Positions 3,021-17,300 of a DNA stretch of 40,000 nt are shown here, piece after piece. The stretch is from IMG/VR virus record IMGVR_UViG_3300025687_000013. One strand, written 5' to 3'. The notes below the pieces were generated by a model. It worked only from the letters and a program-made list of their open reading frames with translations, did no database searches and had not been told where the DNA came from. This DNA comes from a virus. The position numbers and the translations under genes were made by a program. Every line of letters begins with the position of its first letter. The stretch's first letter is position 1.

Positions 3021-3840
3021 TAAACAGGTTGAGGGTTAATGGTTCACTTGGGGTGTAACTCGGCCAGACATCTAGCTCCACACAGGAGGCGAGCTTTTTG
3101 TAAGCCTCGTCCAGCTCGACGTTGGCCATCTGCATGTCATGAGGTGAGAACCTGTAGACGGCAGCCGTGTAGGGTGCCTCAGTCTCAACCACTGCCCATA
3201 GCCAATCGGTGATTGGGTAGCCTGCCTTCTGGCAGATGCGCTGGTAGTTCGCCTGCTGCCAGTGGTATTTCAACCGCCTGGAGGTGTAGGTGAACTCCTT
3301 TGGACTGCTGCCGCCCTTCCTGGTCGTCTTAATGTCAACAACCCGGCGCTCTCTGCCTGCGCTGAGCAAGCAGTCGATTCGGCACTTCACATCGATACCC
3401 TTGACCAGGTTCTTTGCGAACACACTGACCTCGGTCTCACCTCCCTCGATGCTGTCACCAACCCAGGGCAAAGCCATCAGGTTGTCGTGCATCGATTGAA
3501 TAGCTATCAAGTCTTCCTCCTTGATAATGGTGATGTCTTTCTCGGCCTGCCGGGCCCACCATTCCTTGGAAGCTTTCTTCCTGCGGTCAGCGAACTCATC
3601 AGGGCAGACCGCAACCTCGGCATCCCACCGATCTCGCTCCAGTGCATACATGTGGTAGAGGCGGCCAGTCTTCATCGACTCAGTGTCGAAGCCTCTGACG
3701 TTCCCTGACATGTTCTGCTGGAACTCATACGGGTTGGAGATGCGCTTGAGGTCCGAGGTGGAAAGGGCTGAGTCCGCCCGGTAGACGGACTCAGCTACAC
3801 CGTTGAATAGGCCTTCTGCGAAATCAGAATGGAACTTCAT
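3010..3840 (-). CDS. PD-(D/E)xK exonuclease, RecE/exonuclease VIII-like (DUF3799-type pattern)
   Basis: KCRIDCLL...RVVDIKTTRK forms a D...(D/E)xK core, followed by YHWQQANY (a QxxxY motif). ATG 3840 is preceded by GAGGTGA. It sits next to the SSB-like gene, a typical recombination pair. Confidence 0.7.
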   Translation of the reverse strand: MKFHSDFAEGLFNGVAESVYRADSALSTSDLKRISNPYEFQQNMSGNVRGFDTESMKTGRLYHMYALERDRWDAEVAVCPDEFADRRKKASKEWWARQAEKDITIIKEEDLIAIQSMHDNLMALPWVGDSIEGGETEVSVFAKNLVKGIDVKCRIDCLLSAGRERRVVDIKTTRKGGSSPKEFTYTSRRLKYHWQQANYQRICQKAGYPITDWLWAVVETEAPYTAAVYRFSPHDMQMANVELDEAYKKLASCVELDVWPSYTPSEPLTLNLFNAV

Positions 3841-4441
3841 CAACAGTCACCTCGGTTGATTGTTTAGGGGTGTCAGTCACCTCGGACGCAGCCATGTCAT
3901 CAGAGGCCAGAATGTCCTCTTTTGCCCACGATGGGACCTTGTCCCAGTTCTTAGGGTGCTGGTCGATGGAGTAGGCCCAGGGCTCGTTGGCACTGTCGGG
4001 GCACTGCAAACCCTTTGGCAGGGCTGACAGACCAACGATGCGGTCGCTGGTGGTTCCATTGGCATTCTCCTTGTGCTGGACATTTGCCAGGCAAGGGACG
4101 CCAAGGACGTTCTGGAGATCGAATTTCATCAGCTCGTCAGCGGTGAATGCTCGACCTCTCCATGCCTGGAGGTCCTGGCGAAGCTTCGCCTTCTGACTCA
4201 AGCTAGCGGTGTAGGTCACGCTACGCCCCAAGGGCTGTGGTCCGTCCTCCTCCCTGAACACTGCGGTGTGGTCTGGAAACTCAAACGTGAACATCACTCG
4301 CTTGCGTTTCTTGACCTCCCCTTTCCACTCACTATCTGCGGTGCCCAGATCAATGATACTGATGCACCGTGCTACATGGTTGCCCTCTGGAACCAGAGTG
4401 CGTTTCTTGTTGGTTTCGGTTGTTCCTACTGTTAGTCCCAT
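3824..4441 (-). CDS. single-stranded DNA-binding / annealing-type protein candidate (gp2.5 / DUF669-like) with acidic C-terminal tail
   Basis: The C-terminus ...STEVTVDEVPF resembles the acidic DDIPF-type tails of SSBs. The N-terminus has a LVPEGNHVARCISIIDLG pattern. The likely start is ATG 4441 after AAAGGTAACAAA; the ORF-track start at 4489 is a GTG. Confidence 0.55.
   Translation of the reverse strand: MGLTVGTTETNKKRTLVPEGNHVARCISIIDLGTADSEWKGEVKKRKRVMFTFEFPDHTAVFREEDGPQPLGRSVTYTASLSQKAKLRQDLQAWRGRAFTADELMKFDLQNVLGVPCLANVQHKENANGTTSDRIVGLSALPKGLQCPDSANEPWAYSIDQHPKNWDKVPSWAKEDILASDDMAASEVTDTPKQSTEVTVDEVPF
3869..3881 (-). promoter_or_regulatory. 13-mer motif copy (GGTGACTGACACC on minus strand), exact
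   Basis: The plus strand reads GGTGTCAGTCACC. The site lies 28 nt upstream of the exonuclease ATG (3840), inside the 3' end of the SSB-like ORF. Confidence 0.6.
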
Positions 4442-4945: not shown

Positions 4946-5314
4946 TTATTTCTTGATCTGGCGTTGTTGCAACAACTCCTCCAATTGCTTCAGATCACAG
5001 CACTGAAGGAGAGTGAGCAGGTCATCTGCTCTTAGCATTGTCACCCAGGGCCTGTTGTTGGACTTCCAGGTGACCACAGGTAGTTCGTAGGGCTTTGCCT
5101 CCCCTACAACCTGGGCGAGCCAATCTCGCACCAGGCATCTCTCAGCGTTCTTGACTTCCCACCTGACCGGCAGGGCACTGCAAGTCACATCAGGTGACTC
5201 ACAGCCTGTCTGGCTCTGGTGAAAGCCTGTCCTGGTTGATGCGTAGCCGAACTCGGCCAACTTCCGCACCCAGGCTCTCTCTCCCCTGGCTCCCTTTTGC
5301 TTGCTGTTGGTCAT
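4946..5314 (-). CDS. Holliday-junction-resolvase-like PD-(D/E)xK nuclease candidate
   Basis: KGARGERAWVRKLAEFGY...SPDVTC...WEVKN gives the E...D...EVK arrangement typical of Hjc-like / archaeal-type resolvase relatives found in phages. Confidence 0.5.
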   Translation of the reverse strand: MTNSKQKGARGERAWVRKLAEFGYASTRTGFHQSQTGCESPDVTCSALPVRWEVKNAERCLVRDWLAQVVGEAKPYELPVVTWKSNNRPWVTMLRADDLLTLLQCCDLKQLEELLQQRQIKK

Positions 5315-5553
5315 ACGACTTTGCAGCCATGCTCCTCTAGAACAGAGGGCTTGCTTCTGGTGATGCAGCAGTAGCCTGCCTTCTCGGCAACGTAGTTGGT
5401 CAGCATCGACTTCTCATTCATTCGTTGAGCGTCGAGCTGGCACCACACTAGGTGGCTTACGTGGCCGTATTGGGACGGCATCATTGCTGTTTTTGAATAC
5501 CAGTGGGTTACCTGTTTAGGTATCGGTTTCGGGGCTATAGGTGATAGACTCAT
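5311..5553 (-). CDS. hypothetical protein, first gene of the leftward operon
   Basis: 80-aa ORF with an ATGA overlap to the next gene. It lies immediately left of the divergent intergenic region. Confidence 0.45.
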   Translation of the reverse strand: MSLSPIAPKPIPKQVTHWYSKTAMMPSQYGHVSHLVWCQLDAQRMNEKSMLTNYVAEKAGYCCITRSKPSVLEEHGCKVV

Positions 5554-5595
5554 GTTTCCTTTCTATGGGTTTGATTACTGTTGGTTTTGGCTAGG

Positions 5596-5608
5596 GGTGA
5601 CTGACACC
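5596..5608 (+). promoter_or_regulatory. 13-mer motif copy (plus-strand sense), exact
   Basis: GGTGACTGACACC on the plus strand, in the 5554-5674 divergent intergenic region. It lies 66 nt upstream of the plus-strand ORF at 5675. Confidence 0.6.
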
Positions 5609-5647
5609 CGGTAGCTCAAAATGTTAATAACTTTCTGTGGCGTTAAG

Positions 5648-5660
5648 GGTGTCAGTCAGT
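5648..5660 (-). promoter_or_regulatory. 13-mer motif variant (11/13, minus-strand sense)
   Basis: The plus strand reads GGTGTCAGTCAgt. It is inverted relative to the 5596 copy, 39 nt away, in the same intergenic region. Confidence 0.45.
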
Positions 5661-5674
5661 AGAGTTAACTGCTT

Positions 5675-5878
5675 ATGGCTAACTCACGACACCCGGACAA
5701 ACGATGTATCTCTTGCTGGGTTGACAAGGACCTGTTCCTCGGCTGGCAGAAAGAGTGCGCTCACGTAGATCAAACTATGACTGAGCGAGTGACAGTCCTT
5801 CTGACTCAAGACTTCCAAGAACTAACTCGGTCAAGAGTTGCGAAGGCGAAACGTCGAGGTGCTGGCAAAGGGCGGTGA
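5675..5878 (+). CDS. small ribbon-helix-helix-like regulator candidate (possible repressor)
   Basis: 67 aa. KRCISCWVDKDLFLGWQKECAHVDQTMTERVTVLL fits a beta-strand/helix/turn/helix RHH pattern, with a basic tail. It is the first plus-strand ORF after the switch region. No clear SD. Its 3' end overlaps the convergent ORF 5775..5957. Confidence 0.35.
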   Translation: MANSRHPDKRCISCWVDKDLFLGWQKECAHVDQTMTERVTVLLTQDFQELTRSRVAKAKRRGAGKGR

Positions 5879-5957
5879 CGCCCTCGGCTACATCACTCGG
5901 CACGTTGAAAACGATAGGCTCTAACTTTTCCATCTGATTACGATTCAACTTTAACAC
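5775..5957 (-). CDS. small ribbon-helix-helix (CopG/Arc-like) protein candidate (regulator or excisionase-type)
   Basis: PIVFNVPSDVAEGVTALCQHLDVSPSQLLTELVLGSL is a textbook RHH pattern. The start is GTG 5957 or ATG 5933. It is divergent from int, with a palindrome between the two genes. Confidence 0.4.
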   Translation of the reverse strand: MLKLNRNQMEKLEPIVFNVPSDVAEGVTALCQHLDVSPSQLLTELVLGSLESEGLSLAQS

Positions 5958-5960
5958 ACA

Positions 5961-5983
5961 GGTAGGACAAATACTGTCCTACC
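5961..5983. promoter_or_regulatory. perfect 9-bp inverted repeat (GGTAGGACA-aatac-TGTCCTACC), candidate operator between the RHH gene and int
   Basis: Read directly: 5961-5969 is the reverse complement of 5975-5983. The element lies 4 nt from the GTG of the minus-strand RHH ORF and 22 nt upstream of the int start. Confidence 0.4.
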
Positions 5984-6004
5984 ACCCACATCCAGGAGGA
6001 ACAA

Positions 6005-6958
6005 TTGACCACAATGGCATTGTGGGGGTCAGGGGTTCGACTCCCCTCGGCTCCACCAAATTTCCCATCGGAGGAACCAACCCTTCAACTGTCCACTCAG
6101 GACGCCGACATCATTCGCGAGGTCTGGTCTAACGGCGTAAGCCTTGTCCAGGTCTGGAATGATTGGCGACGGTTGTATCTTGCCTCACCCCAAGGAGTCA
6201 ATACTTGTGTTGAATTATTTTTAACACACCTCCATGACACAGGTAGGTCCCCTCAATACTGCAAAGAGTTTGGCTGGGTCCTGCGTAAGCTTGATCTGTT
6301 CATGGACACTGAGCGCCCCCTCTGTCAGGTCACCACAAAAAGTTGGTGGCGTTCTCTCGATGCAATGAGGGCTGGAAACACTGCTAGAAGGAAGGTTGGA
6401 GTGTTCCTGAACTGGTGCCTTGCCCAGGGCTACATCAAGGAACCAATCAACATTCCAGGCAAGCCAAGCTACCCCAAGGGCGACGTTGACGTCCTGACCA
6501 ACGACGAGGTTGCCTCGCTAATCAAAACCTGTCCCTCAGACTTACTAGGTCACCTCTGGCTCTGTTTGTGCATGGGTTTGAGAGTCGCTGAAGCATCCAG
6601 GGTTGAGCATCTGAAAGTAACAGAGACTCACCTAGTGGTCGGTGCCCAGGCTGCCAAGACAAAGACCAGACGCATCCTGGACATCCCTGAACACCATGGA
6701 CACTACACCCAGTTGATCAGGCCTCAGACCAACATCAGGAAACGAATGGAAGCTCTCAGGCTGAAGGCTGGTCTGACTCGATGGCCCAGGAACTGTATGA
6801 GGCACACCGCAGCCTCACATTGGTTGAACAGGCTACGGTCAGCCGAGGCTGCCGCACTTCACCTGGGCAACTCACCTGTCATGTTGCATCGGCATTACAA
6901 AGCTCTAGTGACCCGGCAGGAGTCTACTGAATTCTTTGACCTCTGGGTTGGGTTCTAG
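6005..6958 (+). CDS. int: tyrosine recombinase / phage integrase
   Basis: Catalytic pattern: R in MGLRVAEASR, H-x-x-R in CMRHTAASHW, and H/Y in VMLHRHYKAL. TTG 6005 lies 5 nt after AGGAGG; the alternative start is ATG 6014. Confidence 0.85.
   Translation: MTTMALWGSGVRLPSAPPNFPSEEPTLQLSTQDADIIREVWSNGVSLVQVWNDWRRLYLASPQGVNTCVELFLTHLHDTGRSPQYCKEFGWVLRKLDLFMDTERPLCQVTTKSWWRSLDAMRAGNTARRKVGVFLNWCLAQGYIKEPINIPGKPSYPKGDVDVLTNDEVASLIKTCPSDLLGHLWLCLCMGLRVAEASRVEHLKVTETHLVVGAQAAKTKTRRILDIPEHHGHYTQLIRPQTNIRKRMEALRLKAGLTRWPRNCMRHTAASHWLNRLRSAEAAALHLGNSPVMLHRHYKALVTRQESTEFFDLWVGF
6009..6058 (+). other. attP core candidate: 3' 50 nt of a tRNA-Ala(GGC)-like gene (anticodon arm, variable loop, T-arm, acceptor 3' strand, ACCA)
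   Basis: Anticodon stem CCACA(6009-13)/TGTGG(6021-25) with loop ATGGCAT (anticodon GGC). Variable loop GGGTC. T-arm AGGGG-TTCGACT-CCCCT. Acceptor CGGCTCC plus A plus CCA. U70 is compatible with the G3:U70 Ala identity pair. No matching 5' acceptor strand or D-arm lies upstream, so this is a fragment and not a gene. Confidence 0.75.
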
Positions 6959-6998
6959 ATGGTTCCATTTAAAAACCTGGAGATAGCCCCCCTGGACA

Positions 6999-7011
6999 GG
7001 TGTCAGTCACC
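6999..7011 (-). promoter_or_regulatory. 13-mer motif copy (minus-strand sense), exact
   Basis: The plus strand reads GGTGTCAGTCACC. It is intergenic between int (ends 6958) and ORF 7028, and is oriented against the plus-strand genes around it. Confidence 0.6.
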
Positions 7012-7027
7012 AGGGTAGGCTGTTGCG

Positions 7028-7840
7028 GTGCAACGCTACAAATTAAAGCTCGGCCTGGAGAATGATAGCATCAAACTCCAAGGCATCGGCTCTCAAATCA
7101 GGGCTGCCGCGACATTGATGCAGAAAGCATCTGTTCGAGGAGACGAGGTGGTTCCAGAGATGGTAGTAAATGGCCAGGACGTTTTCCCACTCATCTTTAA
7201 CAGGAAATCAAAGCCCACTTCAGACATGGAGGTTTGTCCATGTGAAAGCCTGAGTTGGTGTCCACTCGATGAGCCAGCACACGCAGGCGCAGCCATGAAT
7301 CATTTCTCATGGTCAGATCAATGGAAGAAAAGGTGCGAAGAAAAGCTCCAAAGCGTAGGCAACCCTACCGTTGTATTATCACTGAGAGAGACTGACAAGA
7401 TAGATGGCGGGGAGATGGTGTTACCCACAGTTGTTTACCAGAATCTAATTAACACATCAGAGGAACCAGTCCTAGTCCTGGCTGATTCTAACTGGTCCCT
7501 GCCAGACCTGGAAACATTACCAACTTGCAGGACCCTAGAGCGAACGATGAGCCACAGCCTGTTCCCCCTTCATCGAACAAGGCTCCTTGATCGAGGCATT
7601 ACTTCTAAAGCAGAGCTGTTAAATCACACCCTGGAAATGTTTGAAGACATTTACATTTTGGGCACAGCAAAAACAGTATTCTACCCGGTGTGGCACGGAG
7701 TGTTATCGGCTGGAATTTTGCTCGCTAAAAACCGTCCAAACCTGGTTTGCCTCCAAGACTTCCTAACCCCAAGGGAGAAGCAGTTTGTGAACTACTACTG
7801 CAAACGGGAAACCCACTTCTGGAACTTCTTAGACAAATGA
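7028..7840 (+). CDS. hypothetical protein, first gene of the cargo cassette
   Basis: 270-aa ORF with a GTG start. Its stop overlaps the ATG of the radical-SAM gene (ATGA), suggesting translational coupling. No family recognised by eye. Confidence 0.55.
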   Translation: MQRYKLKLGLENDSIKLQGIGSQIRAAATLMQKASVRGDEVVPEMVVNGQDVFPLIFNRKSKPTSDMEVCPCESLSWCPLDEPAHAGAAMNHFSWSDQWKKRCEEKLQSVGNPTVVLSLRETDKIDGGEMVLPTVVYQNLINTSEEPVLVLADSNWSLPDLETLPTCRTLERTMSHSLFPLHRTRLLDRGITSKAELLNHTLEMFEDIYILGTAKTVFYPVWHGVLSAGILLAKNRPNLVCLQDFLTPREKQFVNYYCKRETHFWNFLDK

Positions 7841-9030
7841 TAATTCACTCACAACACCTCGACGTCTCTTATGAGGCACAACCTAACTGCAAGACCATTC
7901 AGATAACGGTTGGTGAATGGTCAGAGAAATATGCTGCCCTTCACGGTGGTATCAGAATGATTTGTGCGACCCTGCCGCATGACCTGGTTCACAGGGACCT
8001 CTCGGTAAAAGTCGAATGCGACGGCAACATGGAGCTTGGGCAGGTCGTGAGCAGGAGTGCTAGGCATGAACCTCTAGGCCTGCATGAACACACAGAAGCT
8101 CTGAATGAGTGCGAGCAGAGAGCCATAGCAATGCCTGTCAGCCTTCAGTGGTTTGCTACTTGGAGGTGTAATTACAAGTGCGCCTACTGCTGGCAGGAGA
8201 CAGTGAGAGACAGTTACAGGAAGGACAAGCCAGCCAAAAGGTCGCCTGTAGAATGGGCTAGGGCCCTGCTATCATTACAACCTAACGAGGTCTACATCAG
8301 TGGCGGCGAGCCTACGACTCTCCCCAACTTCACCAAGATCGTTCAGGCAGTTGGCCTGGTTGTCCCCGTCAACATCACAAGCAATCTCGGTAACTCGTTT
8401 GACATCGATGCCTGGGAGAAGGAAGTCAGCCCAGATGCGATTGACTGTATTACTTTCAGTTTTCACCCAACTCAACAGTCGTTCGATGAATACTCAAGGA
8501 AGCTACGTCATTTTGTCAGTGTTTACGGTGGGAGCAAGACCGGGTCGGAGTTAGTCATGCACCCTGGGCAAACACAATACGAACAGCCATTGAGAGACTT
8601 AGACTCTGAGCTTGGGCTAAGGACGCTGAACATCGATGTGTTCCATCAACAGCCAACCATCTACCCAGCCGCACCAGGACAATGCGTGAACAAGAGGCCT
8701 GCAAGCAACCCTGCGTTGGCAAGTAAACCAAGACATGCCCCAGGCGACACAAGCCCACATTACTGTGCTGCTGGAATGACTCGCCTGAACATTGACCCGG
8801 TTGGTGATGCATACACCTGCATGTCAGCCATTGATCGAAGCAAGATGTTTGGAAAGCACACCCTCCCTCACTACTCACCAGTGGGTAATATATTCGACGA
8901 AGGGTTCAGAATGCAGCAGAAGCCTGTGCTGTGCTGGGAGACTTTTCGGTGTTCTGGCTGCGATGTCGCTAAAGTTAAAGGCTCATGGGTTGAACACCCA
9001 CACCCTTACGAACTTCCTTTGCCACAGTAA
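7837..9030 (+). CDS. radical SAM enzyme with SPASM/twitch-like C-terminal Cys-rich domain and a ~100-aa N-terminal extension
   Basis: WRCNYKCAYCWQ is a CxxxCxxC cluster motif. VYISGGEPT is the GGE SAM-binding motif. The C-terminus has YCAAGMTRLNIDPVGDAYTC and LCWETFRCSGCD. ATG 7837 is in frame with the longer ORF-track ORF (7747) and forms ATGA with the upstream stop. Confidence 0.85.
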   Translation: MIIHSQHLDVSYEAQPNCKTIQITVGEWSEKYAALHGGIRMICATLPHDLVHRDLSVKVECDGNMELGQVVSRSARHEPLGLHEHTEALNECEQRAIAMPVSLQWFATWRCNYKCAYCWQETVRDSYRKDKPAKRSPVEWARALLSLQPNEVYISGGEPTTLPNFTKIVQAVGLVVPVNITSNLGNSFDIDAWEKEVSPDAIDCITFSFHPTQQSFDEYSRKLRHFVSVYGGSKTGSELVMHPGQTQYEQPLRDLDSELGLRTLNIDVFHQQPTIYPAAPGQCVNKRPASNPALASKPRHAPGDTSPHYCAAGMTRLNIDPVGDAYTCMSAIDRSKMFGKHTLPHYSPVGNIFDEGFRMQQKPVLCWETFRCSGCDVAKVKGSWVEHPHPYELPLPQ

Positions 9031-9036
9031 AATCTC

Positions 9037-9603
9037 ATGAGACACAAAGTATTATTGGTGGGTAGTGGCCCATACATCAGGGAATGGTGGGCTTTGCACA
9101 AAGACAAAATTGGAGAAGTGAGCTGCATGAACACTGCCATTGAGGTGGTGGGTGCCAGACATCACAGATGGTATCTGAGCAGTGACTTCATGCACAACAG
9201 GCAGTGGACCTTCCAGGGTATGCGGGAGAGAATTGGAGAACACATTCTGGGCTTGAGAATCGTCGCCAGCTTCCTGTCTACCCCTCATTGGTATAACTGC
9301 CCCTATGACGGAACCATGTTGCTCAACTCCATCTACGACATACTCAACAGGGCCACAGTTGGAGAGACTCCGGTGGAGCTGAACCTGATTGGGTGTGACC
9401 TCGACTACAGTCAGCCCAAGACACATTTCTACGAGGGCGGGACTCCTGACCCCAAGAGAATACCAGACGATGTGCTGCTAGGGCACATGCACAAGGCGAT
9501 GAAAGACTTCTCGCCCATGCACAAGATCGTCAACCTGGGGCCCCAGCCATCGTTCCTTCCGTTTGAACCAGGAGACCCTGAACTGTCATGGAAACATACC
9601 TAG
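9037..9603 (+). CDS. Rossmann-like protein, possibly DUF115/MptE-like (Maf / sialyltransferase-like) glycosyl- or nucleotidyl-sugar transferase
   Basis: N-terminal KVLLVGSGPYI glycine motif and a later NLIGCDLDY resemble DUF115-family proteins. The assignment is weak. The CDS itself is well supported by its packing in the operon. Confidence 0.45.
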   Translation: MRHKVLLVGSGPYIREWWALHKDKIGEVSCMNTAIEVVGARHHRWYLSSDFMHNRQWTFQGMRERIGEHILGLRIVASFLSTPHWYNCPYDGTMLLNSIYDILNRATVGETPVELNLIGCDLDYSQPKTHFYEGGTPDPKRIPDDVLLGHMHKAMKDFSPMHKIVNLGPQPSFLPFEPGDPELSWKHT

Positions 9604-10232
9604 TCACATCTGGAACAGTATCTCACGCTCCTATTCGGACCGGTTTCTTTGAGCCATCACTGGCTGAATGTGAGCCAGTTGAGTGGGTTCATTTTGAGAA
9701 AAGGCTACCTCATGACAACACAGGAAACTTCATGCACATAGACTGGAAACATGCTGTGCTGTGGAAAATTAGGAATGCTCTCAAGTTGTGCAGCATGGTC
9801 GATGAAGGCTCGCTGGTTGTCATATCAGACCTCGACATAATCTACAGGCCTGGAGCTTTCAACAGGCTATCGGAAGAGGTTTCAGACGGTGTTTTTGCGA
9901 TGTGCGAGAACGAGCAGATGGAGATAAATGCTGGCTTGATTGCTTCCAAGAATTGCCAGGCATTCAGGTGGTTGCTGACAGAAGTTCTTGAATACATGGT
10001 TCAGCACAGTTGTCACGATCAGAACGCATTGAGGGCTGTCTCCCAGGGTCGGGTAAAGGTCTTGCCAGTTGAGTATAACAACACAAAGACCGAGAACTTG
10101 ATCGAAAGGGGAAAGGCTTTGTGCTTTCATGCAATCTGCACCATGGCAGACGAAAAACAGGGAAGTGTCTCTAAGAAATTAGCCATGCTCCAACGGTGGC
10201 TTGACAGGTGTCAGTCACCTATGGCAACTTAG
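9588..10232 (+). CDS. GT-A-type nucleotide-diphospho-sugar transferase-like protein
   Basis: LVVISDLDIIYRPG is DxD-like, followed by EINAGLIASKNCQAFRWL and HDQNALRAV. The order and spacing match the nucleotide-diphospho-sugar transferase family. Confidence 0.6.
   Translation: METYLVTSGTVSHAPIRTGFFEPSLAECEPVEWVHFEKRLPHDNTGNFMHIDWKHAVLWKIRNALKLCSMVDEGSLVVISDLDIIYRPGAFNRLSEEVSDGVFAMCENEQMEINAGLIASKNCQAFRWLLTEVLEYMVQHSCHDQNALRAVSQGRVKVLPVEYNNTKTENLIERGKALCFHAICTMADEKQGSVSKKLAMLQRWLDRCQSPMAT
10207..10219 (-). promoter_or_regulatory. 13-mer motif copy (minus-strand sense), exact
   Basis: The plus strand reads ttgacaGGTGTCAGTCACC, inside the last 26 nt of the cassette's final ORF. It is oriented against cassette transcription. 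Confidence 0.6.
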
Positions 10233-10379: not shown

Positions 10380-13300
10380 TTAATTGTTTCTCAACTTGTC
10401 CAGGTGGTCCTGGGCTTTCTCTACTGAGCTGAAGACAGGGCCCACTCTCCTGCCCTTGTCAGAGTAGACTCTGACCCCTGCTCTGCTAGATGTCTGAACT
10501 GCCCTGAAGCCGTAACCGTCTAGGTAGATGGCTCCACCTCGGTTGTTCAGTTGTCGGGCTGGGGAGAACTTTGTCCCAGGGAAAGTTTGCCTGGCCTTCT
10601 GTCGCAGGTCCTCTGGTATTCTCAGATTATCAGCGTCGTCTGGTGACAGAGATTGAAGTTCTTCTAAGACTGCGTTGAACCTATTTCGTAGGGGTGCATT
10701 GTCCCTGTCCATACCACCATCATCGCGTCTCTTATTCCTGCTAGTTTGTCGTCTGTCAGAGCTTCTGGCCCTATCTCCTCTGCCAGCTTTTCGGTTTGCA
10801 GCAGAACGCTCGTTCGCTCTTGCTTCGTCAAGCTGGACCAGGGAGGAGTTTGCCATGTCTGAACGGTCCGATTGTAGATATCTTTGGCGTATTTTTCCTC
10901 GATCATCTGGTGTTCCTTGGTAAGTGAGCTGAACAATGTCTGGCATTTCGCCACCTCTGTTCCAACCCTGAGACTCCCATACCCTCATCATATCAGCAAG
11001 CTGATTGTTTGGTGTCCCCTGCTCTTCTGGGTTAAATTTGACCCGGTTTGTTTCCTTGAAGCCAAACGTCTCGATGGCGTCTACCCTAGCGCCTCTAGGG
11101 TTGTTAGCTGTAGGTATTGCGAATGTCTTAATCTCTGTTGCTCCTTCCTCAATGGCTTTGAGCATGATGGCAGGAAGATCAGCACCCGATGTGCCCGGCT
11201 GGTTATTAATAGGGTTGAGAATCTCAAGCCCAGCGCCATCACCTGTAGCCCTGAGAGCGAAGTAAATGTTGGAACTGCGATCTTGGCCCAGTTGAAACAC
11301 CCGCATCTCCCCAGACTTAACCATGTCCTTGACTTGCTTTTTGGGAAGTGGCTCAAGCATGGGTGATGCAAAGTTCTCTCCGATGGCTAGTGAGAAGTCT
11401 GCGCTTCCCTTTCCTGTCCTGGGCACCTCATACCAGTCACCAATTGCACCCTGAAGAACTGCCTTGGCTTGGGCTGGGTTCTTTACGTGTTCAAACTTGT
11501 CTACCCCAAACCTGCTGGCAACTTGCTCAGTGATTGAAGTGACAGGCCAGTCCCTGTCCAGGGTGTAGTAACTGTCTTTGCCTCGGCGCTTATAGTGGTC
11601 TGGGAACAGTTTCTCTGCTGAAATAGGTTTCTCCAGGACACCAACCAACTTGCCCCTCACTGCAAAGTCGTATGACCTGTGGCTTGGAATTCCATTCTCG
11701 CCTAGCTTGACGACGTCGCCTCTAGGGTCGAGCTTCAGCACCAGTAACGCCTGCCCATGAGGCTGCCCCCTAAACTCTGGCTGAATGGTTGCGTCTAGTA
11801 TTCGAGACACTCTAGGGAAGCCTGCCTCAACAAACTTGGCCTGATCAATTCTCTCAGCAAACATAGCCCTCTTTTCAAAGGGCAGGCTGTTTAGGTAAGC
11901 GAGCAACTTGTCTGGGTTCTCCAGCCCTGGGAAGTCGGGGAAAACCAGGGTCTTGCCTTTGCCTTTCCCTGCTGACTTCTCCCAATTTGAAAACTCACTA
12001 TTCAGGCTCTTCAGGTTCTCCTCAGATATTCTGCCTCCCTTGATGTATGCCACAACGGTTTGGCTGATAGCGTCAGAGACATCAGTGTTTGATTTGTGAG
12101 ACTGAGGAGTCATGGAGACCACAACACCGTAGACCCCGTCTTGAGCCATCTTTGACTTGATCTTGCTGACACCAGGGCCCTTGTTGGCCCAGGCGAGGCC
12201 TGCTTTCTGAATGCCCTTGAGAAGTGGGAAGTATGGTCCACCCTTTAATTCGATAGGGACAAGGATGTCAGAGCTGTCGATGCCACTGTAAACGTCTCCT
12301 GCCGCCGTGAGGTCTGCCTTGATTGGGAATAGCTTCATTCCAACCAGGTCTTTGCCTGTAAGCTTCTTGACCTTCTTAGAGTCCACCAGTTTGCTGTAAG
12401 TCTCAGACACAGTCCTGGCTGGTGAATACCTGGGAACACCCTGTGCAGAGACCTTCGAGTTAACGTCCTCGTTGAGTGCCACGTAATTGGCCTGTAAGCC
12501 GTCTCTGAGGGTCTTTTGCTCAACCTGTAACGGTCTACCCTTGGAGTCCTTCGTCTGCTTCCAGAGCTTTAATCTAGGAAGCATTTCATCGTAGAACCCT
12601 CTCATGCCATTACCACCCAGACGGAGGTCGTCTCCTTCCAGGAGGGCAGACCTCATTCCGTTTTGCTCAAGGTCACCCTCCATACTGTCGAGGGCCCTCT
12701 TAGTGAGTTCCTTTCCGATGTAATCAGGAAGCTTGTCCTTGGTGATGCCAGTTTCAACTGTCTTGAAGACGTCCTCATCTGGGACCCTGGCCATCAGCTC
12801 GTAAGTGCCGTCGTCGTATTCAATAACATCTAACCCAGAGACTTTGTCACCGAGGTTATACCTGGCGTTCTGGGTTTCACCGGTTGTCCAAGCGATAGCA
12901 TCGTAGCCCTCATCAGCAGCAAGCTTGAGCATTCGCTTCATCGAGAACTCAGGCCAGGACTTCTTGAAGGGGGCGTTGGGGACTCCTTTTAGTTCATCAA
13001 ACTTTATGCGCCTCAACATGTTTCGCCTTTGCCTCATTTCTGTAGTCATTGGCTTGTATTGGTTTTGCATGAAAAACCGCAAGTCTTCGTGAGCTTTAGC
13101 TTTCATTGCATCAGGGGCATTGTCGTGAAACATTTGCTCCTCAATCTTCTGTAATCGCAGTTTTAAAACCTGAAGATCGTTTACCTGCTCAAGAACATCA
13201 AGTTCCCTTGCTTCTTCTTGAGTCAGCCTCCTAGTTCCATACCCCTTGCCTCTTCCTGCTTGATGCCAATCAGACTGAATTTCCTCCAGGAACAGAATCT

Positions 13301-16300
13301 TCTCACCGTCAGAGCCTATTCGGTCGTTGTGGCGAACGTGGGCAACGATGTTTGCTTGGTCGAAGTGACCAGAGGAGTAAGGACCGAAACGAGAGTCACG
13401 AACGGTCAGCAACCTCTCGGTGTATGTCCCTGGCTCTGCCCCTGGTTCTGTGTATTCAGAGAACTTGCCGCCTCCTCTCTCTTCAATTGGGACAAGCTCT
13501 GGGTAAAATTCTCCAGAGAGTTCCCCCTTAAATGCTTCGTAAAGGGCTTTGTCAGCCTCCTGTAAGCTATTGTATGATTCTTCAAAGACAGGGAACTCTC
13601 TGCTCAAAGTGGAGTAGTCAACTAGCTCAGGCTGGCCGTTCCTTCCTTCTCTTAGAATTGCAAATTCGTTCTCAGGGACATCGTCGAAAACAGTGTTTTT
13701 AAGGTCTTCCCCGCTAAACACTTTAAGTCTATTTTTCTCTATCAGAGCCCCAGCAAACCTAACCCAGTTGTCGTCTATGAACTTGTAGGCTGCGTCGTTG
13801 CTTTCAAAAGTTGGAAGTCCCATGGACTGGGACATGTAGTCTCCGTCAATGTTGGTGATTTCCACAACTGGAACACCTCCTCCGCCCTCCGTCACCTCCA
13901 CCATCTCAATCTGGTTAGCCTTGATGAAGTTCAAGACATCTTCCTTGGTGGTGGTTGGGTTGTCTTTCAGGAAGACGTCCAGGCCAATGTCCTCAAGTTC
14001 CTCCTTCTTGACCCCAGCCTTGTCCATGGCTTTCAGGAACTGTTGAGAGGTGCCCTTCTTCTGCTGCATTCCCTCGATGGCCTCCTGGGCCTTGGAATAC
14101 ATTCCCAGGTTGTCCAGCTCCCGTTGTGGTGCCTCTGGTGCCCTGGTAGGGCTGAACATCTGTTTGGCCTTGAGGTGGTCAAATGGGCCCATGCCAAACG
14201 GTGTCCCGTTGGCACTGGTGTCTCTCAAGGAAGCTATGCGTTCAATGCGTAGGTTCTTGTAGATTCGGTTCCCACTGTTCTTGTCCCAGGCAGAGTAGAG
14301 AGGGTTCTTGACGTAGTTATTGGTCTGAAACAGTGCGTTGATGATATTGTGCTTGTCATCTGTTAGCCCAGTTTTGCCTGAAATGTCGTTACGGTGGTTT
14401 TCCAGATACTTCCTAGCATCCTCCAGGAACGCATCTACGTCGTTGTTCCATGGGAGGAGCTTTGAAGTGTCTCTCCAAGCAGCAACTCGGCCCCTGACAT
14501 AGTTTAGGTCAATTACTCTGACGTTGACATTACCGTTGTTAGTGATGAACCACTCATGGGGGATGTAGTTGTATACCGTCGCAGGAATGTCCCCCTTCTT
14601 GCCGGTTAGAGAGTTGACCCAGCTATCTCCCTGGGCCCTGGTGCCGATGCCGAAATAAAATGAGCGAATGGCTCTACCACTGGCAATGGCTTGGTTGATC
14701 TCATCGATGGTCCCCCTGAAGTTCTCCATCATTGGAGCGTCAGAGTATTTAGACTGAAGAAACTTCCCTCGATACTCTTGCTTGCTTGGGTCAGGTGTCC
14801 CGTCAGGGTTGTATTTCTGCTTGAGGCTGACCTCTGGCATTGTTGCATCTGACACCTCGGTATCTAGCGCCTCCTTGACCTCTTTACGCCTCTGACGAAT
14901 GCGTTTTTGAATGTCCTTCTTGTTCTTGGCCTTCTTCCTACCACCTGACTGGGAGGAGCCTTGAGAGTTGCTAGATGCTTTGTCGTCACCCTGGCTCTTT
15001 GGGGTGTCGTTGACGTCGTCGAAGTATTCTTTGCCAACACCGTCCCAGTTGACCCTGTCGTCAGATGCGTCCTTTTTGACGTTGGTCCGTTCCTCTCTGC
15101 CCTGGGCAAAAGCCTTGTATTGTCGGTTCAGGTCTCTGGCGTATTTCTTGTAGGACTTTGAAAGTTCAGAGTCTAACTTTAGGTTGATACCGAAAATGTT
15201 GTCTGGCTTGCTGGCCTGCTCAGGTGACGACTGCTTAGGTTCCTTCTTGTAGCCTAAGCCATCGAGACCTAGCCCGCCCTTCATGACGTCAATGACACTG
15301 AACGCAGTCCCCTTGGCCTCATTGATAGCCATACCGAGTCCAGTTATCGGGGTTTGACCAAACGGTGCTGCGGCCCTTTGAACCGCAGTCTTGAGTTTGC
15401 CTAGCTTAGAGTTGTTCCTGACGTAGTTGTGGAGACCTTGGTCGGTTGAAACAGACATGAAGTTCTCTGAGAACATCTCTCGAACGACCCAGTCTTGGTC
15501 CCCGTCGTTGAGATACTGACGATCAAGTTCTCTGACTCTGCTTTCAACCTCTTCAGGAGTTGGTGTTCTTCGCTTTTCCGCCTGAAGCATCTGCCCTACG
15601 TATGACCGCTTGATTTCGTTTAAGTCATACTCATTCTTGACCTGGTTAACGACAGTCTCTTTGTCAACCACACCACTGTCCCACATGGCCTCACCTACTT
15701 CGTGAAGCAGGGTGTCGGACAGTTTCGTGCTGTCAGCGTTAAGAATGATCTCTTTGCTTTGAGAGTCGTAGTAGCCTTCTACACCTTTCCCTCTAACGGC
15801 TTTGGCGAACTCGTCGCTAGGCAATAGTTTAATATCAACCCTGCCTCGAAGAACTTCTGAAGCAGTGGCCAGGTCTTCAATGGCCCTCCTGGCCATGCTG
15901 CGTAAATTTCCAGATGGCTCGTCAACGACTTCCAGGTTGGACATCTCAATCAACCTGTTCATTGCGCCCTCGCTGCCCTTATGTCGGCCAACAAAGTCGT
16001 TTATGCTGCCCTGCATCTTTGCTGCATCACGTTGGCCCGTGATGGTGTCTACAGTGTAGCCACCAAGGCCACCCAGGCCGCCTGTAAGGCCTGCTGCAAA
16101 GGCACCAGCCTTGGCGCCCTCGGTTCCTTCTGCAAGGCCCCCCAGGGTTGCTCCAGCCACAGAGCCATAAGCAGCACCCCTGCTAATGTCCTTGGCGAGC
16201 CCTAGCGCAACGTCTCCCTTGAACTGGCTGGCTGCGGATGCTGCCATTCTAACACTCTCAGGCAGGCTCATGTTCTTGGAGGCTCTCTCCAAGGGGCCCA

Positions 16301-17300
16301 TATTTGTCGGCAGCTCTGGCAAATCTTCGATAGACTTGGTGAGAGCTGAACCGGCAGGCCCAATGCGGTCGGCGGCCTCTACACCTCCCTTAATCACTGC
16401 TGTGGGGACGGGTGCTGCACCTAGCCCGAAATACGTGAGTTTGCTGGCATTACGTCCAGCAAGTTCCTGCGCCCAGTCTGGCGTGATCTCGACTATCTTG
16501 TCCTTTATCGAGTCCTTGGTTGATTGCAGGGCTTCTCCCGTTGCAACCATGGCTGCCCCAACCTTCTTGCCCGCAGCCCTCATGGCCTTGGCCTCAAGCT
16601 GTGCTAGTTGCTTGCCGAAGCCCTTTTTGACTAGGCCAGAGGCAGCACCACCAACCACTGTCCCGATGTCAGCAACGTAGCTGGCACCCTCTGCCAGGGC
16701 TGGGTCAACATCAACGTCTCCAGTCTGGTTGTAGCCAAAGAATGCGTCTGGGTCTTCCGAGAGTGCCAGATGATCAATTAGGTCTTCTTGACCAAGGCGA
16801 GCTTTCTCTCGCATAGCTTCCAGCTTCCTGATCTCTCTCCAGCCCCTGAAGCGTTCTCTTGTCAGGGCTTCGTCCCTGGTAAATCTGTCCTTGGCTTTCT
16901 GGGTAAGAATGCCCAAGTCGGCTGTGCCTCTCAGGACGCCCTCTCCCAGGGAGTTGACTATTCTTTGGAATTCTCCTTCAGCCAGGTTGGCAGCAAATGC
17001 TCGGCCACCGTCGTAGAGTTCCTTGAACATGGTCTTGCCAACCTGAATGGCATCGTCCATTCCAAAGCTCTGCTTCTCCTGGGTCTCTAGCCACTCCTTC
17101 CACTGCTCATAGGCCTGGTCAGTGTCACCAGGGACAAACGTCAGGTCATCGAGCCTGGAGGCTGAGTCATCAAACTCTATTGATGTTGCGACATTGTCCT
17201 GTGATTGAGCAGTTGGCTCATCATCAAACACCAGACTGGTTGCTACCCCTGTTGAAACTTCAGGTTCATCGTCAAATTGTAAGCCTGTCGCAATTGCCAT
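10380..17300 (-). CDS. giant (2306 aa) multidomain virion-associated / polyvalent-type protein, last gene of the late operon
   Basis: Uninterrupted 6.9-kb ORF. Its Gly/Ala-rich N-terminal third resembles internal/ejection proteins. Central blocks HFDQANIVAHVRHNDRIGSDGEKILFLEEIQSDWHQAG and APFKKSWPEFSMKRMLKLAADEGYDAIAWTTGETQNARY resemble domains I recall from large polyvalent proteins of phages and conjugative elements. There is a GNAT-like block near the C-terminus. Confidence 0.6.
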   Translation of the reverse strand: MAIATGLQFDDEPEVSTGVATSLVFDDEPTAQSQDNVATSIEFDDSASRLDDLTFVPGDTDQAYEQWKEWLETQEKQSFGMDDAIQVGKTMFKELYDGGRAFAANLAEGEFQRIVNSLGEGVLRGTADLGILTQKAKDRFTRDEALTRERFRGWREIRKLEAMREKARLGQEDLIDHLALSEDPDAFFGYNQTGDVDVDPALAEGASYVADIGTVVGGAASGLVKKGFGKQLAQLEAKAMRAAGKKVGAAMVATGEALQSTKDSIKDKIVEITPDWAQELAGRNASKLTYFGLGAAPVPTAVIKGGVEAADRIGPAGSALTKSIEDLPELPTNMGPLERASKNMSLPESVRMAASAASQFKGDVALGLAKDISRGAAYGSVAGATLGGLAEGTEGAKAGAFAAGLTGGLGGLGGYTVDTITGQRDAAKMQGSINDFVGRHKGSEGAMNRLIEMSNLEVVDEPSGNLRSMARRAIEDLATASEVLRGRVDIKLLPSDEFAKAVRGKGVEGYYDSQSKEIILNADSTKLSDTLLHEVGEAMWDSGVVDKETVVNQVKNEYDLNEIKRSYVGQMLQAEKRRTPTPEEVESRVRELDRQYLNDGDQDWVVREMFSENFMSVSTDQGLHNYVRNNSKLGKLKTAVQRAAAPFGQTPITGLGMAINEAKGTAFSVIDVMKGGLGLDGLGYKKEPKQSSPEQASKPDNIFGINLKLDSELSKSYKKYARDLNRQYKAFAQGREERTNVKKDASDDRVNWDGVGKEYFDDVNDTPKSQGDDKASSNSQGSSQSGGRKKAKNKKDIQKRIRQRRKEVKEALDTEVSDATMPEVSLKQKYNPDGTPDPSKQEYRGKFLQSKYSDAPMMENFRGTIDEINQAIASGRAIRSFYFGIGTRAQGDSWVNSLTGKKGDIPATVYNYIPHEWFITNNGNVNVRVIDLNYVRGRVAAWRDTSKLLPWNNDVDAFLEDARKYLENHRNDISGKTGLTDDKHNIINALFQTNNYVKNPLYSAWDKNSGNRIYKNLRIERIASLRDTSANGTPFGMGPFDHLKAKQMFSPTRAPEAPQRELDNLGMYSKAQEAIEGMQQKKGTSQQFLKAMDKAGVKKEELEDIGLDVFLKDNPTTTKEDVLNFIKANQIEMVEVTEGGGGVPVVEITNIDGDYMSQSMGLPTFESNDAAYKFIDDNWVRFAGALIEKNRLKVFSGEDLKNTVFDDVPENEFAILREGRNGQPELVDYSTLSREFPVFEESYNSLQEADKALYEAFKGELSGEFYPELVPIEERGGGKFSEYTEPGAEPGTYTERLLTVRDSRFGPYSSGHFDQANIVAHVRHNDRIGSDGEKILFLEEIQSDWHQAGRGKGYGTRRLTQEEARELDVLEQVNDLQVLKLRLQKIEEQMFHDNAPDAMKAKAHEDLRFFMQNQYKPMTTEMRQRRNMLRRIKFDELKGVPNAPFKKSWPEFSMKRMLKLAADEGYDAIAWTTGETQNARYNLGDKVSGLDVIEYDDGTYELMARVPDEDVFKTVETGITKDKLPDYIGKELTKRALDSMEGDLEQNGMRSALLEGDDLRLGGNGMRGFYDEMLPRLKLWKQTKDSKGRPLQVEQKTLRDGLQANYVALNEDVNSKVSAQGVPRYSPARTVSETYSKLVDSKKVKKLTGKDLVGMKLFPIKADLTAAGDVYSGIDSSDILVPIELKGGPYFPLLKGIQKAGLAWANKGPGVSKIKSKMAQDGVYGVVVSMTPQSHKSNTDVSDAISQTVVAYIKGGRISEENLKSLNSEFSNWEKSAGKGKGKTLVFPDFPGLENPDKLLAYLNSLPFEKRAMFAERIDQAKFVEAGFPRVSRILDATIQPEFRGQPHGQALLVLKLDPRGDVVKLGENGIPSHRSYDFAVRGKLVGVLEKPISAEKLFPDHYKRRGKDSYYTLDRDWPVTSITEQVASRFGVDKFEHVKNPAQAKAVLQGAIGDWYEVPRTGKGSADFSLAIGENFASPMLEPLPKKQVKDMVKSGEMRVFQLGQDRSSNIYFALRATGDGAGLEILNPINNQPGTSGADLPAIMLKAIEEGATEIKTFAIPTANNPRGARVDAIETFGFKETNRVKFNPEEQGTPNNQLADMMRVWESQGWNRGGEMPDIVQLTYQGTPDDRGKIRQRYLQSDRSDMANSSLVQLDEARANERSAANRKAGRGDRARSSDRRQTSRNKRRDDGGMDRDNAPLRNRFNAVLEELQSLSPDDADNLRIPEDLRQKARQTFPGTKFSPARQLNNRGGAIYLDGYGFRAVQTSSRAGVRVYSDKGRRVGPVFSSVEKAQDHLDKLRNN

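Follow-up and report, generated by a model that had tools for sequence, protein, structure and literature searches.

A tRNA-Ala fragment as the probable attachment core at the 5' end of an integrase gene in an uncultured Verrucomicrobiota phage

The IMG/VR virus record IMGVR_UViG_3300025687_000013, analyzed here as a stretch of 40,000 nucleotides (nt) referred to as the window, carries a 51-nt fragment of a tRNA gene at the 5' end of its integrase gene, int. Positions 6008-6058 are identical to nt 26-76, CCA included, of a host tRNA-Ala(GGC) gene. We consider it probable that they form the phage attachment site (attP) core of a temperate uncultured phage of Verrucomicrobiota (Limisphaerales/Pedosphaera), a judgment that applies jointly to this identification and to the model of integration and translation presented below.

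The tRNA-derived core and the integrase

From 5994 to 6058 the window reads AGGAGG-aacaa-TTG-A and then continues with the following tRNA elements.

6008-6058, plus strand: putative attP core, exact match to tRNA-Ala(GGC), equal to Int residues 2-18 if translated
6009-6025, plus strand: anticodon arm, with the stem CCACA (6009-6013) / TGTGG (6021-6025) and the loop ATGGCAT (6014-6020)
6016-6018, plus strand: anticodon GGC
6026-6030, plus strand: variable loop GGGTC
6031-6047, plus strand: T-arm AGGGG-TTCGACT-CCCCT
6048-6054, plus strand: acceptor 3' strand CGGCTCC, carrying U70, the Ala identity base
6055 and 6056-6058, plus strand: discriminator A73 and CCA
6031-6058, plus strand: 3'-end part of the tRNA that the phage would supply (T-arm, acceptor 3' strand, A73, and CCA)

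A first-pass annotation of this DNA had described the tRNA fold with its anticodon arm, GGC anticodon, T-arm, and acceptor strand, and all of these coordinates hold on a sequence check. It had placed the core at 6009-6058, which is an exact tRNA match, but the identity to the host gene begins one base further 5', at A26 (6008). It had also stated that the 5' acceptor strand and the D-arm are missing. In agreement with this, ARAGORN detects no complete tRNA anywhere in the window, the 5' half being absent, so that the core is a 3' fragment. The window has one instance of the T-arm/acceptor pattern, against none expected in shuffles, and there is neither a second copy of the core nor an attR (right prophage junction) within the window.

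The host gene predicted by the same annotation exists. Among GTDB species genomes, the 47-nt core at 6009-6055 has 18 exact matches, all in Verrucomicrobiota, namely in Limisphaerales and Pedosphaera metagenome-assembled genomes (MAGs) and in one single-cell genome. Sixteen of the 18 make up the 3' portion of complete 76-nt tRNA-Ala(GGC) genes that encode their own CCA and whose 5' half reads GGGGTCGTAGCTCAG(T/C)TGGTAGAGCA. The remaining two (locus L001, from a single-amplified genome, and locus L002) are fragment-only copies with an int homolog next to them, as in the window. Eight IMG/VR contigs hold the core, each in a single copy; six are int loci of the family described below, and in two more attP is followed by int. 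Across phages with Int identities of only 66-96% and diverged flanks, all 51 nt of the core are 100% conserved, which argues for selection on the core.

In relatives, the stretch identical in attP and the bacterial attachment site (attB) begins somewhere from tRNA position 26 to 30, immediately before the anticodon loop. This left edge is compatible with the anticodon-loop sublocation class of attachment sites and does not itself map strand exchange. Judged by its sequence, the anticodon-arm dyad (6009-6025) is the presumed core-type binding site of Int and most likely the region of crossover.

It seems to us very improbable that the core is something other than a tRNA-derived attachment site, be it the 3' end of a transfer-messenger RNA (tmRNA), a chance pair of hairpins, or a prophage attR inside host DNA. 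Weak Rfam hits for tmRNA and permuted tmRNA, at 16-21 bits and thus under the gathering score, reflect the Ala-type acceptor and T-arm that tmRNA shares. These are overridden by the exact 47-nt matches to tRNA-Ala(GGC), which include the anticodon arm and thus exclude both tmRNA and chance. An attR is contradicted by int lying directly downstream, as on the attP or attL (left junction) side, and by phage genes on both sides of the core: DnaB and PDDEXK genes upstream, capsid and tail genes downstream. The same arrangement of tRNA piece and int is found in mid-contig position on contigs of ~32-61 kb. RNA folding of 5985-6095 gave the two tRNA hairpins, yet with a stability not above that of shuffles (z = 0.71).

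The gene that follows and appears to include the core is:

6005-6958, plus strand: int, encoding a 317-residue arm-less tyrosine recombinase

Int is a two-domain (core-binding and catalytic) tyrosine recombinase without an arm-binding domain. It matches the PHROG 1 integrase (9.6e-10) and has 46 homologs, several of them with PF00589; the window Int itself has no Pfam match even at E<=10, and a profile made from a family alignment (alignment A1) matches XerA at 0.0046. Residues R193, K218, N263-x-x-R266, H295, and Y298 are invariant in alignment A1. An AlphaFold model has a mean predicted local distance difference test (pLDDT) score of 81.7, with residues 1-25 below 50. Using Foldseek, it was matched to Brujita Int (5vfz, the best match), XerA, and lambda Int(75-356), with a probability of 1.00 and E values of ~1e-7 to 1e-6. 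According to this model, the tRNA-encoded N terminus of about 25 residues is probably an unstructured leader, the sequence of which appears not to matter. In all 38 of 38 aligned family members, the second catalytic His (of H-x-x-R) is replaced by an invariant Asn, N263-C-M-R266 (~6791-6802) in the window. INPHARED contains no cultured relatives, by either DNA or Int protein.

Relatives, integrated forms, and reading of the core

Scans with the Int alignment yielded 80 metagenomic and 11 IMG/VR loci of the family, many of them on contigs of ~40 kb. In nearly every locus with enough upstream sequence (~90 loci), a tRNA 3' piece precedes the conserved LSxQD motif of Int, with 10-41 nt between the two. 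The pieces are mostly from tRNA-Ala(GGC), and others are from tRNA-Val(GAC) or tRNA-Leu(GAG).

A complete tRNA lies directly upstream of int on the same strand in ten loci, which are attL forms: L037, L041, L047, L050, L054, and L087 for Ala, L036 and L070 for Val, and L078 and L096 for Leu. These integrated relatives read complete tRNA, 15-38 nt, and then the int body. Upstream of the tRNA, the flanks of L047 and L054 are 97% identical to L018, a MAG chromosome, and those of L041 and L087 are 95% and 83% identical, respectively, to L017, a Pedosphaera MAG. By these flanking sequences, these four attL-form relatives are real insertions into host chromosomes at exactly this junction, as the first-pass annotation had anticipated for prophage copies. 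L018 itself has a complete tRNA followed by a mere 48-nt remnant of int.

Several further observations concern the target tRNAs. In Pedosphaera sp. ARS72, the L017 contig ends in a complete tRNA-Ala plus CCAAATTCTT, and the L002 contig starts 1 nt before the core and runs into int; the pair resembles an attL junction that assembly has split at the repeated core. A tRNA-Leu(GAG) can be flanked by two family integrases, one downstream on the same strand and one upstream on the opposite strand (L078, ~790-1160; L096, ~3200-3900). In L084-L086, L089, and L098, the target is reversed: tRNA-Leu is on the strand opposite to int, 54-70 nt upstream of it. In L042, the tRNA-Val 3'-end motif CGCACCATTT occurs twice upstream of int, 193 nt apart (-217 and -24 nt from the Int anchor).

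An alternative is that stable lysogeny at this site is rare or does not occur at all, the phage being essentially lytic and integrating without lysogeny or the module being a relic, in which case the arrangement would lack regulatory meaning. Part of the survey goes against our model and in this direction. Among ~110 loci, there is neither an attL nor an attR of the window's own clade (Int identity of at least 86%), the integrated copies belonging to relatives with 42-59% Int identity. Core scans of GTDB and IMG/VR gave no attR junction for any family member, and no repressor or excisionase was recognized among the window proteins using Pfam and PHROG. T7-like cyanophages are reported, by the title of PMC8776855, to integrate without lysogeny. 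Nevertheless, we regard this alternative as improbable, given the complete conservation of the core beside diverged Ints, the persistence of full-length int bodies in the attL loci of relatives integrated in host chromosomes, and the occurrence of one lineage in both states (L037 as attL, L038 and L039 as attP). A literature search for Verrucomicrobia prophages at tRNA-Ala found no papers.

The reading of the core as part of a temperate phage's integration module leads to the question of where Int begins. The relevant features are:

5994-5999, plus strand: Shine-Dalgarno (SD) sequence AGGAGG, 5 nt upstream of TTG 6005
6005-6007, plus strand: TTG, most likely start codon of the free phage (attP form); no other start occurs in the 60 nt before the core
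6014-6016, plus strand: loop ATG, tRNA nt 32-34, in frame with int
6059-6085, plus strand: 27-nt linker from the tRNA CCA to the conserved Int body, without promoter-sized space, canonical start, or terminator

The first-pass annotation had put the whole core inside the int open reading frame (ORF), with TTG 6005 and ATG 6014 as the only plausible starts. Both are in frame, but so is a third, TTG 6020, in the loop/stem. No canonical in-frame start was found between 6020 and ~6172, which is already beyond the invariant residues W41 and S46, and this bears out the absence of a start downstream of 6058. The location of the core within the ORF is supported by relatives in which an in-frame upstream start is kept with the tRNA piece in another phase. 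The N-terminal peptides MALWGSGVRLPSAPP, HNGIVGVRGSTPLGST, and QWHCGGLGFDSPRLHH in alignment A1 are one tRNA-Ala piece read in three phases, which rules out that they are distinct N-terminal cassettes derived from different tRNAs.

In 18 of 19 distinct attP-form Ala sequences (~9 lineages, three phases), the nearest start upstream of the piece is in frame with int; for the L038 clade, the codon scored was the ATG common to its members, 51-52 nt upstream. The exception is L001, in which the nearest in-frame upstream ATG is followed at once by TAG. Because this TAG directly precedes the core (two codons upstream of the loop ATG), the usable starts of L001 are the loop ATG, which comes first, or the TTG two codons later.

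The frame is retained through compensating changes on the two sides of the piece. The window reads CCAGGAGGAACAA-TTG-A and then the core, and L109 and L021 (86% Int identity) read CCAGGAGGAAGAA-TTG-CA and then the core, with one nt fewer between CCA and the conserved S-x-E-P-x-L-x-L-S-x-Q-D codons (from the window to L109, a gain of 1 nt ahead of the piece and a loss of 1 nt behind it). The equivalent of TTG 6005 therefore stays in frame in L109 and L021 despite the 1-nt shift of the tRNA piece, and the linker region is the site of the 1-nt indel that compensates its phase. In its place, the L105 clade has an in-frame ATG, reading AGGAGGAA(a/g)AA-ATG and then CACAATGG. Between L022 and L102 there is a 6-nt in-frame indel, and L022 and L023 are offset by +5 nt ahead of the piece and by +1 nt behind it. 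A common upstream N terminus, MPNKK/MPKIN, occurs in L038, L043, and L042/L044, the tRNA piece in them being from Ala (phase 0 or phase 1) or from Val. The sequence CCAGGAGGAA(c/g)AA plus a start codon is conserved in L099, L100, L109, L105, L034, L031, and L107. From this comparison, the int ORF likely starts at or before the core, with TTG 6005 as the best candidate (SD-proximal and in frame across the phase change), and translation appears to run through the core, whichever of the three phases it is in. The N-terminal peptide predicted upon translation of the core is (M)TTMALWGSGVRLPSAPP.

It is also conceivable that the core is attP but untranslated, and that Int starts downstream at a non-canonical codon such as CTG 6089 after the SD-like GGAGGA at 6070-6075. 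The tRNA piece is free of stops in all forward frames, which would let ORF callers extend the frame; an open frame across the core is for this reason no evidence by itself. In the Leu group and part of the Val group, int starts 3-30 nt after the tRNA, and Int function therefore does not require the core to be translated. Both observations count against a translated core, and the predicted disorder of Int residues 1-25 fits an untranslated one as well. We nevertheless consider a downstream start unlikely, if slightly less so than a seldom-used site. It does not account for the in-frame upstream start kept in the attP sequences in all three phases, nor for the N-terminal peptide conserved upstream of the core in the L038/L042/L043 clade. 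The second SD with a non-canonical start was rejected as GGAGGA is not conserved (GTAGAA in L109, GGGGAA in L105). The window codon aligned with the ATG of relatives is CTT, and CTG 6089 lies 13 nt after GGAGGA.

Within the Leu group, loci with 11 nt from the tRNA end to LSSQD (for example L057, L062, L058, L068, and L075) vary only synonymously in the LSSQD codons. After the last stop, they have no in-frame ATG, GTG, or TTG, and the sole candidate is AT(T/A/C) overlapping the final A of CCA, a position occupied by ATG in L055 and L056 and by TTG in L077. Non-canonical initiation at the tRNA end is possible in this group, to judge from these codons.

Consequences of integration and neighboring genes

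In the model that we favor, with the core as attP and translated, arm-less Int would recombine the core with the host tRNA-Ala(GGC) gene, crossover occurring most likely in the anticodon loop/stem. The phage copy would rebuild the 3' part of the tRNA, placing int directly behind a complete tRNA at attL. Wherever in the 51-nt identity the exchange took place, the 5' half of the host gene would come to stand ahead of 6009. In the free phage, translation would start from TTG 6005 behind AGGAGG and read through the tRNA piece. Upon integration, the promoter, SD, and TTG would move to the far prophage end (attR), with a loss of 1-3 codons from int. The expected attL of the window clade is GGTAGAGCA + 6009-6058 + AATT(T/C), followed by a window-like int. 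The expected attR joins CCAGGAGGAACAATTGA and the core to the host sequence that follows the tRNA in L003-L016.

The attL relatives L037 and L041, which are in the same phase as the window, read GG-TAG-AGC-ACC-ACA-ATG. The D-stem TAG (GGTAGAGC), three codons before the loop ATG, closes the frame just upstream, so the loop ATG is their first start. Likewise, int of a window-clade prophage would initiate at loop ATG 6014 as the first available start. Since the 27-nt linker has no room for a promoter and no terminator, int would be transcribed only through read-through from the tRNA or from further upstream. Processing of tRNA 3' ends would also act on any tRNA-int co-transcript, with loss of the loop AUG. 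We would thus expect strong Int synthesis immediately after infection and weak synthesis in the lysogen, there also dependent on tRNA processing. We infer start-codon use, transcription source, and Int levels in the two states from sequence.

The claim of the first-pass annotation that the loop ATG would be the sole start remaining after integration applies in part: it is the first start in L037 and L041, but it is in frame in only one of three phases (phase 0). For this reason, the loop ATG is an opportunistic feature of this lineage and not a family-wide design; judged by reading frame, it appears usable and in some lineages necessary. In the attL loci of phase 2 (the L047 group), the tRNA contains GTG and TTG codons that are in frame. 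Phase-1 lineages would have no canonical start within the tRNA after integration; no phase-1 attL was seen among 3 attL lineages, an absence that is not significant because there are only 3. The single phase of the loop ATG, the lack of a phase-1 start, and the lack of any sigma-70-like promoter in 5300-6300 all speak against the favored model.

Two features lie upstream of int:

5775-5957, minus strand: divergent 60-residue ORF on the P-arm side, without a Pfam or PHROG match
5961-5983, no strand: perfect 9-bp hairpin GGTAGGACA-aatac-TGTCCTACC between the 60-residue ORF and the int SD

By position only, the 60-residue ORF is a candidate regulator or directionality factor, and it would end up at attR after integration. 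A Pfam search of the small ORFs neighboring int gave no match. The hairpin, kept in L099, L100, and L112 but not in L109, is a candidate operator or terminator. The exact repeats TTTAACACAC (5950 and 6220) and ACACAGGTAGG (5956 and 6237) flank the core, their second copies lying within int. They were rejected as arm-type sites, being absent in L099, half kept in L100, and without counterpart in other clades; they could be accessory Int or host-factor sites, which we do not claim.

The rest of the window phage encodes a DnaB helicase, PDDEXK nucleases, an SU10-type capsid protein, and a tail protein. Beyond int, a plus-strand islet (6005-10232) contains a radical S-adenosylmethionine (SAM) ORF at 7747-9030 (PF04055, 1e-9) and three ORFs without a family match; the genome outside this islet is almost wholly minus-strand. 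The radical-SAM islet may be a moron or auxiliary cassette beside the integration module. A giant 2306-residue ORF (10380-17300, minus strand) lies amid the structural genes and has no PHROG match.

Comparison with known systems

To our knowledge, few phages are known for Limisphaerales and Pedosphaera. The work presented here links a group of ~40-kb phages without a cultured relative to these hosts. It describes, in an uncultured bacterial phage family of ~100 loci, a mild form of an arrangement in which the attachment site lies in the element's own gene, described so far mainly in archaeal viruses. The attP and int module is very compact (51-bp core, arm-less Int of 290 residues), and its target tRNA appears swappable (Ala, Val, Leu), which is of possible interest for recombinase tools. 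Overall, this is a variation on known kinds, namely SSV-type integrases, RAP44-like phages, and promoter switching in integrative and conjugative elements (ICEs).

An attachment site inside the element's own integrase gene was stated to be exclusive to archaea in a 2021 review (PMC8371274). In the archaeal SSV-type "suicidal" integrases (SSV1, pTN3, and pT26-2), it is a translated tRNA-gene fragment inside the integrase ORF (PMC8371274, PMC7253208). Similarly, in the window the attachment site lies, by its sequence, in the int ORF, integration would part the 5' portion of the gene from the rest, and attachment site and int form a compact module. In the SSV-type, however, the cut falls deep within the gene and should inactivate Int, whereas here promoter, SD, and 1-3 codons would be removed and the whole catalytic protein would stay intact behind the tRNA. 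The host also differs, being a bacterium, as does the motif, which is N-x-x-R here and K-x-x-R in the SSV1 type; the two are set apart by motif and host. As a tentative proposal, and one that we hold to be doubtful rather than probable, the window system could be a bacterial counterpart of the archaeal self-disrupting integrases, with prophage Int produced solely from the tRNA-int co-transcript and initiating at codons of the host tRNA (here AUG, nt 32-34). On this proposal, which would concern a widespread family of aquatic Verrucomicrobia phages, excision would be possible only as far as the tRNA is transcribed and the transcript escapes 3' processing, and the translated tRNA piece could occupy any reading phase.

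There is a bacterial precedent in the RAP44-like temperate phages of Riemerella anatipestifer, in which a 19-bp attP (the 3' end of tRNA-Ser) is located at nt 25-43 of the annotated int; after integration, attR keeps 43 bp and the int at attL lacks its 5' end (PMC12169736, 2025). Both are bacterial phages with attP in the 5' region of int. The RAP44-like core is short and lies at the tRNA 3' end, whereas the window core spans 51 nt from the anticodon arm. Their host belongs to the phylum Bacteroidota, and the report is without comparative evidence for translation of the 5' codons and without a start codon in the tRNA piece (PMC12169736).

Like the Brujita-type simple integrases, the window Int has two domains and no arm-binding domain, but its identity to Brujita Int is only 16%. 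Work by Broussard et al. 2013 and Lunt & Hatfull 2016 reportedly places mycobacteriophage attP inside a phage coding gene, so that integration changes the protein made. In this integration-dependent immunity, attP is said to be in the 3' end of the repressor gene, and integration to remove a C-terminal degradation tag. By contrast, attP of the window lies in the 5' end of int itself.

In KplE1/HK620-type elements, the int promoter is in a ~200-nt attL spacer between the tRNA and int and stays with int (PMC2951348). The window family shares with them the order of tRNA and then int in the same orientation, as well as an attachment site overlapping the expression signals of int; its spacer of 10-41 nt, unlike theirs, cannot hold a promoter.

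For ICEKp1, ICEclc, and ICEEc1, experiments showed that the integrated int is transcribed from the adjacent tRNA promoter (PMC13023037). Once excised and circular, these ICEs express int from a promoter that comes from their opposite end, and this biases the element toward the integrated state (PMC13023037). As in these ICEs, int of the integrated relatives is directly behind the tRNA in the same orientation, and by analogy it may be transcribed from the tRNA. The ICE switch is transcriptional only, since int ORF, SD, and start codon stay together. In the window, SD and start codon would switch as well because the junction falls inside the ORF. If true, this would extend the promoter switching of ICEs to a state-dependent switch that acts on both the transcription and the translation of Int.

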